A DNA stretch of 21,381 bases, taken from a virus (taxonomy: Duplodnaviria; Heunggongvirae; Uroviricota; Caudoviricetes). The position numbers and the translations under genes are program-made. The notes beneath the pieces are model-generated. The model was not told the DNA's origin. It saw nothing but the letters and a program-made list of their open reading frames with translations, and did no database searches. The DNA lies in the IMG/VR virus record IMGVR_UViG_2718217709_000001; one strand, written 5' to 3'. This document shows positions 4,021 through 7,603 of the stretch, piece after piece; the stretch's first letter is position 1, and every line of letters begins with the position of its first letter.

Positions 4021-4077
4021 GAATGAACCGCCCCGGAAATCCTGGAGACTAAACTCCCTGAGAAAGAGGTAAACAGG

Positions 4078-4404
4078 ATGACTAAAAATACTCGTTTTTC
4101 CCCCGAAGTCCGTCAGCGGGCGATTCGTATGGTTCTGGAAAGTCAGGATGAATATGACTCACAGTGGGCGGCAATTTGTTCCATTGCCCCAAAGATTGGC
4201 TGTACGCCGGAGACTCTGCGTGTCTGGGTTCGCCAGCATGAGCGGGATACCGGGGGCGGTGATGGTGGGCTCACCAGCGCGGAACGTCAGCGTCTGAAAG
4301 AGCTGGAACGTGAAAATCGTGAACTGCGCCGCAGTAACGATATCCTTCGCCAGGCTTCCGCTTATTTTGCGAAGGCGGAGTTCGACCGCCTCTGGAAAAA
4401 ATGA
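4078..4404 (+). CDS. IS3-family transposase OrfA (HTH)
   Basis: 108-aa ORF ([22 protein letters not shown]...) recalled as IS629/IS1203-type OrfA; ends at the AAAAAA slippery run. Confidence 0.85.
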
Positions 4405-4818
4405 TGCCACTGCTGGATAAGCTGCGTGAGCAGTACGGGGTCGGACCGGTATGCAGCGAACTGCATATTGCCCCGTCAACGTATTACCATTGTCAGCAAC
4501 AGCGACATCATCCGGATAAACGCAGTGCCCGTGCGCAGCACGACGACTGGCTGAAGAGAGAGATACAGCGCGTATACGATGAAAATCATCAGGTGTACGG
4601 TGTGCGTAAAGTCTGGCGTCAGTTGTTACGGGAAGGAATCAGGGTGGCCAGATGTACAGTGGCACGTCTCATGGCGGTTATGGGACTTGCCGGTGTTCTC
4701 CGGGGTAAAAAGGTCCGTACGACCATCAGCCGGAAAGCCGTTGCCGCAGGCGACCGCGTAAACCGTCAGTTCGTGGCAGAACGACCTGACCAGCTGTGGG
4801 TGGCTGATTTTACTTACG
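4401..4818 (+). CDS. IS3-family transposase OrfB, 5' exon (interrupted by group II intron after ...[10 protein letters not shown])
   Basis: In-frame continuation is found at 7089; the intervening 2270 bp has group II intron boundaries. Confidence 0.75.
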
Positions 4819-5474
4819 GTGTGCCCGGAGTTCAGGGCGGGCATGGATGCTTAAATGAACCGCGAGTCTGTCTGGAATATTGAACCGGTAACTCACGATG
4901 AGAAACCCAACAATCCCACCGGGTGTGACGGTGGAGAACCTGAGCGGCAGTGACCTGCGGCATGCCCGCAGGGTGATGTAACCCGCTGACAACGGGGATT
5001 GAGGCGAGATCACTAAGCCGAGATGATCCTCAAGGTTAAGTACTGAAAGGCTGAAGAACATGAACCCGTTAATCCGCCTCTGTGGGTTGAAAACGTCACC
5101 ACGGCCTACGTGATCTGACAGGCCGTGCAGGAGGAACTGGCAGTAATACGTAAGCACTGCCGGTCGAAGGTGTTTTGACATGTATGCGAAACACCGGGGC
5201 AGCAGCGTCTATCACGCTTGCGTTGCTGACTTCTGCCAACTTGCGGCAAGCAAGGATAAAGAGTGCGACGGGCAGCCTCCTCAGTATGCCTGAGTCCAGG
5301 CAGGTAAACCGGGGAAGGTCAGCGACGGATGTTAAGGGGGCATGGCTCCGATGACGCGCTGGCTGGCGGAGCTTCCGTAGTAGTCCGCGATGGGGAAAGC
5401 CCATTACATGGCGAAGGGAAGCAGTTTGAATGTGTTTGCGACGTGAATTAACTGACCTAACGAGGTGAAGACCT

Positions 5475-6998
5475 TTGATAATCAGCGAAATGCAACGCAA
5501 GCTTGCCACATGGGCAGTCACCGATCCGTCCCTACGGATTCAACGGCTGCTGCGTCTGATAACACAACCAGAATGGCTGGCTGAAGCGGCGCGGATCACG
5601 CTTTCATCAAAGGGGGCCCATACCCCCGGCGTTGATGGCGTGAACAAAACAATGCTACAGGCCAGACTGGCTGTTGAGCTGCAAATCCTCAGGGATGAAT
5701 TACTCTCAGGCCACTACCAGCCCTTGCCCGCCAGACGGGTTTACATCCCTAAAAGCAACGGCAAACTGCGACCACTGGGTATCCCCGCGTTGCGGGATCG
5801 TATTGTTCAGCGGGCCATGCTGATGGCGATGGAGCCGATATGGGAGAGTGATTTTCATACACTCTCATATGGCTTCCGGCCTGAGCGCAGTGTCCACCAC
5901 GCTATCCGCACGGTGAAATTACAGCTCACAGACTGTGGTGAAACCCGGGGACGCTGGGTGATTGAAGGCGACCTGTCCAGTTACTTCGACACCGTACATC
6001 ATCGACTGCTGATGAAGGCTGTACGCCGCAGGATCAGTGACGCACGTTTCATGACTCTGCTGTGGAAAACCATCAAGGCGGGACATATCGATGTCGGTCT
6101 CTTTCGGGCGGCCAGTGAAGGTGTGCCACAGGGCGGTGTTATATCGCCGCTATTATCGAACATCATGCTGAATGAGTTCGATCAATACCTGCATGAGCGC
6201 TACCTGAGCGGGAAAGCCAGAAAAGATCGGTGGTACTGGAATAACAGTATCCAACGGGGCCGAAGTACGGCGGTCAGAGAAAACTGGCAGTGGAAACCCG
6301 CGGTGGCGTACTGCCGCTATGCCGATGATTTTGTCCTCATCGTCAAAGGCACCAAAGCACAGGCGGAAGCCATCAGGGAGGAGTGTCGGGGTGTGCTCGA
6401 AGGCAGTCTGAAACTCAGGCTGAACATGGATAAGACTAAAATCACCCATGTTAATGACGGCTTTATCTTTCTGGGGCACAGGATCATTCGCAAACGCAGT
6501 CGTTATGGCGAGATGCGAGTGGTCTCAACGATCCCGCAGGAGAAAGCCAGAAACTTCGCCGCATCGCTGACAGCACTGTTATCAGGCAACTACAGTGAAA
6601 GCAAAGTCGATATGGCTGAACAACTCAACCGAAAACTGAAAGGCTGGGCCATGTTCTATCAGTTCGTTGATTTTAAGGCCAAAGTCTTCAGTTATATCGA
6701 CCGTGTCGTGTTCTGGAAGCTGGCTCACTGGCTGGCCCGCAAATACCGTACAGGTATCGCTTCCCTGATGAGGTGGTGGTGTAAATCACCGAAACCGGGT
6801 CAGAGCAAAACGTGGGTTTTATTTGGTAAAACCAATCACGGCAAGCTCAGCGGCGAAATACTGTACCGGTTGGTGGGGCAAGGCAAGAAGCTGTTCCGCT
6901 GGCGGCTACCCGAAGGTAATCCCTATCTGAGGACGGAGACCAGAAACACGTATACATCGCGCTTTACAGAAGTGGCAATGGCGTTCGCCAGCATTTAA
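5475..6998 (+). CDS. Group II intron-encoded reverse transcriptase/maturase (no endonuclease domain evident)
   Basis: 507-aa ORF with RT motifs (GIPALRDRIVQRA, YADDFV) and a C-terminal maturase (X) region; no HNH-like Cys/His cluster at the C-terminus. Confidence 0.9.
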   Translation: MIISEMQRKLATWAVTDPSLRIQRLLRLITQPEWLAEAARITLSSKGAHTPGVDGVNKTMLQARLAVELQILRDELLSGHYQPLPARRVYIPKSNGKLRPLGIPALRDRIVQRAMLMAMEPIWESDFHTLSYGFRPERSVHHAIRTVKLQLTDCGETRGRWVIEGDLSSYFDTVHHRLLMKAVRRRISDARFMTLLWKTIKAGHIDVGLFRAASEGVPQGGVISPLLSNIMLNEFDQYLHERYLSGKARKDRWYWNNSIQRGRSTAVRENWQWKPAVAYCRYADDFVLIVKGTKAQAEAIREECRGVLEGSLKLRLNMDKTKITHVNDGFIFLGHRIIRKRSRYGEMRVVSTIPQEKARNFAASLTALLSGNYSESKVDMAEQLNRKLKGWAMFYQFVDFKAKVFSYIDRVVFWKLAHWLARKYRTGIASLMRWWCKSPKPGQSKTWVLFGKTNHGKLSGEILYRLVGQGKKLFRWRLPEGNPYLRTETRNTYTSRFTEVAMAFASI

Positions 6999-7003
6999 AT
7001 GGA

Positions 7004-7037
7004 GAGCCGGATGCGCTGAAAGGTGCACGTCCGGTTC
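7004..7037 (+). ncRNA. Group II intron domain V (catalytic hairpin)
   Basis: GAGCCGGATGCGCTGAAAGGTGCACGTCCGGTTC, about 50 nt before the intron 3' end. Confidence 0.7.
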
Positions 7038-7088
7038 GGGGAGGAGAGGCAGGGAAATAGTCCGACTACGCCCTGCCTCTTACTCTAC

Positions 7089-7561
7089 TCAGCACATGGC
7101 AGGGCTTCGTCTATGTGGCGTTTATCATTGATGTGTTTGCCGGATACATCGTGGGGTGGCGGGTCTCATCGTCTATGGAAACGACATTCGTGCTGGATGC
7201 GCTGGAGCAGGCGTTATGGGCCCGTCGACCGTCTGGCACCATCCATCACAGCGATAAAGGCTCTCAGTATGTGTCACTGGCCTATACGGAGCGACTAAAA
7301 GAAGCCGGATTACTGGCATCAACAGGGAGTACAGGCGACTCGTATGACAACGCGATGGCTGAGAGCATCAATGGTCTTTACAAAGCGGAGGTAATACACC
7401 GTAAGAGCTGGAAAAACCGTGCAGAAGTGGAACTGGCCACACTAACGTGGGTGGACTGGTATAACAATCGACGATTGCTGGGAAGGCTGGGCCATACTCC
7501 TCCGGCAGAAGCAGAAAAAGCTTATTATGCTTCCATCGGAAACGATGATCTGGCAGCCTGA
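7089..7561 (+). CDS. IS3-family transposase OrfB, 3' exon (DDE catalytic region)
   Basis: Continues the orfB frame after intron removal ([20 protein letters not shown]...); stop TGA at 7559-7561, just before the right inverted repeat. Confidence 0.75.
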
Positions 7562-7603
7562 GTTCACAGATAAAACACTCTCCAGGAAACCCGGGGCGGT
7601 TCA

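Follow-up and report, generated by a model that had tools for sequence, protein, structure and literature searches.

The closest described systems to the locus reported here are group II introns residing in the transposase genes of insertion sequences (IS). According to Leclercq & Cordaux, E.c.I4 of Escherichia coli has defined insertion points in the IS3-like transposases of IS629, IS911, ISEc16 and ISEc31, with 100% saturation of its homing sites in enterotoxigenic E. coli (ETEC) E24377A; their supplement places the copy E.c.I4-2b at NC_009801 4848623-4850893 (PMC3522654). Toro & Martinez-Abarca assign E.c.I4, together with S.f.I1, to bacterial open reading frame (ORF) class A, a class without the D/En region (PMC3552965). 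For RmInt1, housed in ISRm2011-2, the yield of ligated exons in vivo is only 0.07%, and this intron has been argued to hold its host IS in check. The IS629::E.c.I4 arrangement is already known, common and documented. Here we analyse a copy of it in a 21,381-nt stretch of DNA (IMG/VR virus record IMGVR_UViG_2718217709_000001; "the window" denotes this whole stretch). We are highly confident that the locus consists of an IS629/IS1203 element with E.c.I4 in sense orientation within its orfB, lying antisense in a P22-type DNA-transfer gene of an ETEC island. As to its origin, we lean towards an arrival of this copy with the intron already on board, the whole composite having transposed.

The features of the composite were recomputed from window positions 3800-7800. 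The parts of the IS and of the gene it interrupts are the following:

4024-7603, plus strand: composite of IS629/IS1203 (IS3 family) and intron, 3580 bp, of which the IS makes up 1310 bp.
4024-4048, plus strand: left terminal inverted repeat of the IS; 22 of its 25 positions agree with 7579-7603 in reverse complement, the first 13 without a mismatch.
7579-7603, minus strand: right terminal inverted repeat of the IS, pairing with 4024-4048.
4021-4023, no strand: left copy of the target-site duplication GAA; the empty site in O6:H16 2014EL-1346-6 has a single GAA.
7604-7606, no strand: right copy of the target-site duplication GAA.
4078-4404, plus strand: orfA, 108 amino acids (aa), with HTH_Tnp_1 (Pfam domain match).
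4359-4475, plus strand: ALIL frameshift-stimulating pseudoknot (Rfam RF01497, 121.5 bits).
4401-4818, plus strand: 5' exon of orfB, ending in W V A D F T Y plus the G of a Val codon, with the first D of the DDE core.
7089-7561, plus strand: 3' exon of orfB, with the remainder of the rve/DDE domain.
7604-9395, minus strand: 5' part of the interrupted gene, about 597 codons out of 705; the product is a homologue of a phage DNA-transfer protein.
3695-4023, minus strand: 3' part of the same gene.

The insertion sequence is IS629/IS1203 of the IS3 family, because it measures 1310 bp, has TG...CA repeats, a 3-bp duplication, orfA/orfB and ALIL, and is 99.8% identical to annotated copies. Its termini are inverted repeats of the TG...CA type found in IS629/IS1203: TGAACCGCCCCGG, at 4024-4036, recurs at 7591-7603 as its exact reverse complement. 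The -1 frameshift between orfA and orfB falls on the A6 slippery run (4396-4401) within the ALIL region, and intact IS1203/IS629 copies carry the annotation 'programmed frameshift'. With position 4818 joined to 7089, orfB reads through in frame: its 296-aa product has HTH_21 and rve domains and shows not a single amino-acid difference from an intact IS1203 OrfB. Once the intron is removed, only two single-nucleotide polymorphisms (SNPs), at 7216 and 7228 and both synonymous, separate the IS from the intact copies annotated as IS1203 family (99.8% identity); identity to copies annotated as IS629 in Shiga toxin (Stx) phages is 99.6%. Deleting 4024-7606 restores the host locus as well, with 100% identity over 5418 nt to the uninterrupted one of O6:H16 2014EL-1346-6, where the 705-aa gene is intact and has one GAA. 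The composite lies antisense to this gene and truncates it after about 597 of its 705 codons.

The intron and its parts are placed as follows:

4819-7088, plus strand: group II intron E.c.I4, 2270 nt, splitting orfB at 4818/7089.
5490-6998, plus strand: ORF of the reverse transcriptase (RT)/maturase, 502 aa; with a TTG taken as start, the longest ORF extends over 5475-6998.
7004-7037, plus strand: domain V, close to consensus, GAGCCGGAUGCGCUGAAAGGUGCACGUCCGGUUC, with AGC triad, GAAA tetraloop and bulge; Rfam and the minimum-free-energy (MFE) fold give the same helix.
7039-7086, plus strand: domain VI, with the bulged branch-point candidate A7082; from Rfam and the MFE fold.

The intron is identical at 2270 of 2270 positions to NC_009801 (E24377A) 4848623-4850892, which is E.c.I4-2b. 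Introns above 95% nucleotide identity share one name in the intron database (rule quoted in PMC3552965), and here identity is 100% over 2270 nt; by its sequence, then, the window intron is E.c.I4 of bacterial ORF class A, the class placement of the RT being taken from PMC3552965. An RmInt1-like class D intron was our initial suspicion, dropped as the same paper puts E.c.I4 in class A. The 5' end GUGUG (4819-4823) and 3' end CUAC (7085-7088) follow the GUGYG/AY boundary rule, the Rfam family Intron_gpII (RF00029) matches 7002-7088 with 64.9 bits (E 5.8e-11; gathering score 40), and A7082 bulges 7 nt from the 3' splice site in the MFE fold.

The intron-encoded protein has YADD at aa 277-280 (nt 6318-6329), the Pfam domains RVT_1 (1.4e-34) and GIIM (1.3e-10), and a TIGR04416 match of 341 bits (cutoff 300). 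It matches LtrA (PDB 5g2x) at 2.2e-52, other solved group II RTs being also related, and it is identical to the ltrA product of E24377A, WP_001189123.1, an accession that RefSeq gives to intron copies in several further records. We found no HNH endonuclease (D/En) domain in its C-terminal 131 aa, where GIIM was the sole Pfam match at E<=10. Together, these features are not a pattern produced by chance.

Much of this had been described in an earlier reading of the window, made from its letters alone (the sequence-only reading below), and stands: the inverted repeats flanked by GAA at 4021-4023 and 7604-7606, the orfB interrupted at 4818/7089 by 2270 bp that start with GTGTG and end with AC, the domain V hairpin, the RT/maturase with YADD and the exact restoration of both orfB and the host gene. 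The folding that it proposed as a check recovered the 3' part, domains V and VI, with A7082 bulged. Its supposition of an endonuclease-less type agrees with the class A description (PMC3552965), and its overall picture of a group II intron in an IS629-type orfB inside a host gene with published E.c.I4 (PMC3522654, PMC3552965).

The pairing between the intron and its 5' exon involves four segments:

4813-4818, plus strand: intron-binding site 1 (IBS1), CTTACG, with which the 5' exon ends; 6 of 6 nt form Watson-Crick pairs with 5149-5154.
5149-5154, plus strand: exon-binding site 1 (EBS1), CGTAAG, in the loop that caps hairpin 5138-5163.
4805-4811, plus strand: proposed IBS2, TGATTTT, with 5 Watson-Crick and 2 G-U pairs to 5006-5012, assigned by inspection.
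5006-5012, plus strand: proposed EBS2, GAGATCA; the MFE fold leaves it unpaired, within the loop of hairpin 5003-5019.

E.c.I4 would have reached IS629 by retrohoming, its EBS1 and EBS2 loops pairing with the final 14 nt before the 5' splice site; the pairing itself is seen here, and a role for it in homing is what established knowledge of group II introns suggests. Lacking an endonuclease, the intron would need to prime reverse transcription from DNA ends at the replication fork, by analogy with RmInt1. Matching EBS against IBS in the orfB exon, another check named in the sequence-only reading, thus gave 6/6 pairs for EBS1/IBS1 and 7/7 for EBS2/IBS2 with the two G-U pairs included, both EBS lying in hairpin loops. 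The chance expectation for a specific 6-mer in 660 nt is about 0.16. In relatives 84-86% identical, the EBS2 segment GAGATCA is conserved, and compensatory changes are seen in the EBS1 hairpin stem (alignment columns 318-346). For domains I-III as a whole, a comparison of only three sequences finds such changes in 14 of 191 predicted pairs. Two other candidates for EBS2, UGAAA at 5044 and at 5088, were rejected, with 5 pairs only and a position outside any conserved hairpin loop. The homing site in orfB encodes the motif W..D.TY, conserved in IS3-family transposases, and the IS629 site is the best-matched E.c.I4 target. We also looked for covariation of EBS and IBS in diverged relatives: copies L005 and L007 have the same EBS1, and in L003 (86% identical) the EBS1 loop differs in sequence and is not complementary to the flank of that copy, so that the comparison offers no clean test. 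A separate composite, on the chromosome of O6:H16 M9682-C1, carries G5150A within EBS1 (CGTAAG to CATAAG) and has no matching 3-bp duplication, its flanks reading GAG and CCT; this copy looks rearranged and possibly impaired in homing.

The history of the insertion was examined in a collection of 5426 complete E. coli genomes. The exact left junction occurs in two of them, ETEC 254D-1 and 360D-1, and 84 others have the same 621-nt flank (at least 80% coverage) without the IS; the IS-free flank matches listed are all 100% identical and include strains of the same sequencing project. The IS insertion is very recent, because its junction is confined to 2 of 5426 genomes and the restored sequence is 100% identical to the empty site. 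An assembly artefact is ruled out by the presence of the junction in two independent assemblies and by the clean target duplication. The sequence-only reading had called both insertions recent: the genome counts uphold this for the IS and not for the intron, which was most likely already aboard the arriving IS. In the sister ETEC strains E1648, E1654 and E1739 there is no IS629 here, but an IS1 lies a few hundred bases away (window about 3400-4020 region).

The other copies in strain 254D-1 point to how this one arose. The identical 3580-bp composite occupies four sites and has a different 3-bp duplication at each: GAA for the window copy, AAG for another on the chromosome, GTT for that of plasmid p1 and AGT for that of plasmid p2. 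Intronless IS629 was sought in the chromosomes of 254D-1 and 360D-1, with a query made of unique flank, the 60-nt spliced-exon junction and 30 nt of the IS end, and, among plasmids, in the five of 254D-1 (p1-p5). The intronless exon junction is absent from both chromosomes, where the query returned a single place each, and from p1-p5; as a positive control, the same junction was found at up to 31 places in other genomes. Among the 5426 genomes, no intronless IS629 is identical to the window copy, the best reaching 99.8% (SNPs 7216 and 7228). The A7216/A7228 haplotype is seen only together with the intron, and composites of other lineages (H12, H15) have the common G/T haplotype at these positions. 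Comparison with IS629 copies elsewhere in the same genome, which the sequence-only reading had proposed, thus returned identical composites at further sites and no intronless IS629. Its nested description also implied that the nesting took place in situ; nesting as such does not imply this order at this locus.

On the simplest reading, the A7216/A7228 haplotype would have arisen in the composite and then spread by transposition of the whole unit, and the present copy would have arrived with its intron through copy-out/paste-in transposition of all 3580 bp. Stepwise nesting at the locus, in which an intronless IS629 entered the phage gene and E.c.I4 then retrohomed into it, is possible though clearly the less likely course. 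The intron looks very active in this lineage, with at least eight copies in 254D-1 (six on plasmids, two on the chromosome), all 100% identical; homing sites in E24377A are reported as saturated (PMC3522654); and the perfect match of the IS629 site to EBS1 and EBS2 would let a new intronless copy be filled fast. Against this stand the absence of intronless IS629 from the 254D-1 chromosome and plasmids and that of an intronless A7216/A7228 copy from the 5426 genomes: an intronless donor must therefore be postulated, and then lost or filled everywhere. The plasmid sites of the intron in 254D-1 comprise IS629, a variant of IS629 at 96% identity and two places that lack IS629 exons, the latter on p1 and p3 and flanked by IS3-family or partial transposase fragments.

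As read from the sequence, an unspliced transcript of the composite can give only OrfA and a truncated OrfB, and full OrfAB needs both the -1 frameshift at A6/ALIL and exact splicing. That splicing would be needed to make transposase, as the sequence-only reading put it, fits this truncation and the published descriptions of E.c.I4. With middling confidence, we propose that the 3.58-kb IS629::E.c.I4 is a transposition-competent unit in ETEC whose transposase would come only from spliced mRNA, the latter because no intronless IS629 was found in 254D-1; if the composite moved as a unit, some splicing in vivo is therefore implied. The composite might instead be mobilised in trans, by another IS3-family transposase or a transient intronless IS629, splicing being then unneeded. 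Plasmid p1 of 254D-1 does have several intact IS3-family elements annotated with programmed frameshifts; these, however, share only short fragments of nucleotide similarity with IS629, and an IS3-family transposase as a rule recognizes the ends of its own element and prefers to act in cis, which makes this explanation improbable.

It is more improbable still, to the point of being hard to credit, that the composite is an inert relic in which the intron neither splices nor moves and the IS is dead, its identical copies stemming from recombination or replicon duplication. The analogy with RmInt1 in ISRm2011-2, which has 0.07% ligated exons and is argued to limit the spread of its host IS, would speak for such a relic, and RefSeq labels the orfB halves as pseudogenes. 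However, the 502-aa ORF is intact, identical in E24377A and present as WP_001189123.1 in several records; no sequence difference separates the copies within 254D-1 (100% identity); only two strains have the insertion; and each of the four composites has its own 3-bp direct duplication, a signature of transposition and not of recombination.

Several points weigh against the account of a retrohomed intron that splices and travels with its IS. Splicing and mobility of this copy are predictions from the sequence and the population pattern, and a hyperactive intron filling each new intronless IS629 copy would give the same end state as unit transposition. The identical E.c.I4 sequence (L005, L007) also resides in an IS911-like transposase, after ...GTGATGTGACCTATA|, with CCTATA| at the junction, where EBS1 pairs at 4 of 6 positions only. 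Target choice is therefore not explained by base pairing alone, and target recognition must either tolerate mismatches or involve protein; what the IS629 and IS911-like sites have in common is the coding position after TY of W..D.TY and the TGAT core of IBS2. The MFE fold of domains I-III is only weakly better than that of shuffled sequences (z = -2.1, from 20 shuffles only). EBS3 and delta-delta' were not located in the intron, and neither was pursued.

Two further composites in 254D-1 show nesting of their own. At p1 38670-43599, an IS421 (IS4 family) sits within the RT ORF of an E.c.I4 that is itself within IS629, a third level of nesting. The p2 composite with the AGT duplication (15161-19520) lies between two partial coding sequences, one annotated 'reverse transcriptase domain' to its left and one annotated 'group II intron maturase-specific domain' to its right: its IS appears to have inserted in the ORF of another group II intron. 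Plasmid E54 p2 has the same arrangement.

The interrupted gene belongs to a small island between dinD and yicC, which encodes an integrase, a primase-like protein, Ash and AntA/B-type proteins, and C4 and isrK RNAs. The 705-aa protein matches PHROG 6704 over its full length and also PHROG 770, 'DNA transfer protein', with no match in Pfam; its upstream neighbour (9380-10735) is a homologue of the P22 injectosome translocase. On these similarities, the host gene is a homologue of P22-type DNA-transfer (ejection) proteins in an integrase-bearing island. Its designation as a cargo gene in the sequence-only reading was unjustified, given the PHROG 770 match, the adjoining translocase homologue and the integrase of the island.

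At the window's ends, positions 1-837 (minus strand) hold an ORF with a Bro-N domain, which is dinD, so that the window begins in a chromosomal gene next to the island; at the other end, the integrase gene (20113-21381) abuts yicC. Rfam recognizes C4 antisense RNA at 16722-16809 (minus strand, 79.9 bits) and isrK at 16872-16949 (minus strand, 60.5 bits). Both lie just 3' of the Ash-family gene (16263-17330, minus strand), overlapping its 5' half, and the AntA/B antirepressor gene (17499-18332, minus strand) is found further upstream of the Ash-family gene. The region resembles a P1/P7-type c4-ant immunity module within the island.

The composite is widespread. IS629::intron is present (at least 80% coverage) in 1403 of the 5426 genomes, about a quarter, and E.c.I4 at 99% identity or more is found on 1428 plasmids of Escherichia, Klebsiella, Salmonella and other genera. 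E.c.I4 within IS629 has been catalogued for years, and the window copy has little weight as a discovery; it adds a case in which a strain-specific, very recent insertion has inactivated the phage-type DNA-transfer gene of an ETEC island. Mildly new is only the population evidence for transposition as a unit. RefSeq (E54 p2 and one more record) presents the orfB exons as separate 'IS3 family transposase' pseudogenes, incomplete and frameshifted, and overlooks a spliceable, frameshift-dependent transposase gene. The lesson for annotation is that the halves of orfB are labelled as unrelated pseudogenes, though the IS is potentially functional once spliced.

Should the proposed history be true, four identical composites with four duplications would amount to natural genetic evidence that splicing of a class A intron keeps its host IS mobile, in contrast to the RmInt1/ISRm2011-2 model of an intron restraining its IS. 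Confirmation that the composite travels as a unit would bear on whether group II introns silence their host insertion sequences or merely ride them.

Compared with known systems, the outer element shares with IS629/IS1203 its length of 1310 bp, inverted repeats, 3-bp duplication, orfA/orfB, -1 frameshift and ALIL, at 99.6-99.8% identity to annotated copies of an IS abundant in E. coli O157:H7, Stx phages, ETEC and Shigella. It differs by the synonymous SNPs A7216 and A7228, found in no intronless copy of the collection, and by an orfB broken by the intron. With E.c.I4, and with S.f.I1 of Shigella (99% identical), the intron shares its sequence (2270/2270), its residence in the orfB of an IS629/IS3-family host, its insertion after TY of W..D.TY and the lack of an endonuclease domain; there is no difference in the element itself, and what is new is the chromosomal location of this IS copy, in two strains only. 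RmInt1/ISRm2011-2 of Sinorhizobium meliloti is likewise an endonuclease-less group II intron within an IS transposase gene, with a transposase that depends on splicing, but it belongs to class D (IIB3), not class A, and its host is of another IS family. Whereas RmInt1 is reported to splice very poorly and to restrain its IS, the distribution of identical E.c.I4 composites with distinct duplications suggests that IS629 still moves while carrying the intron.

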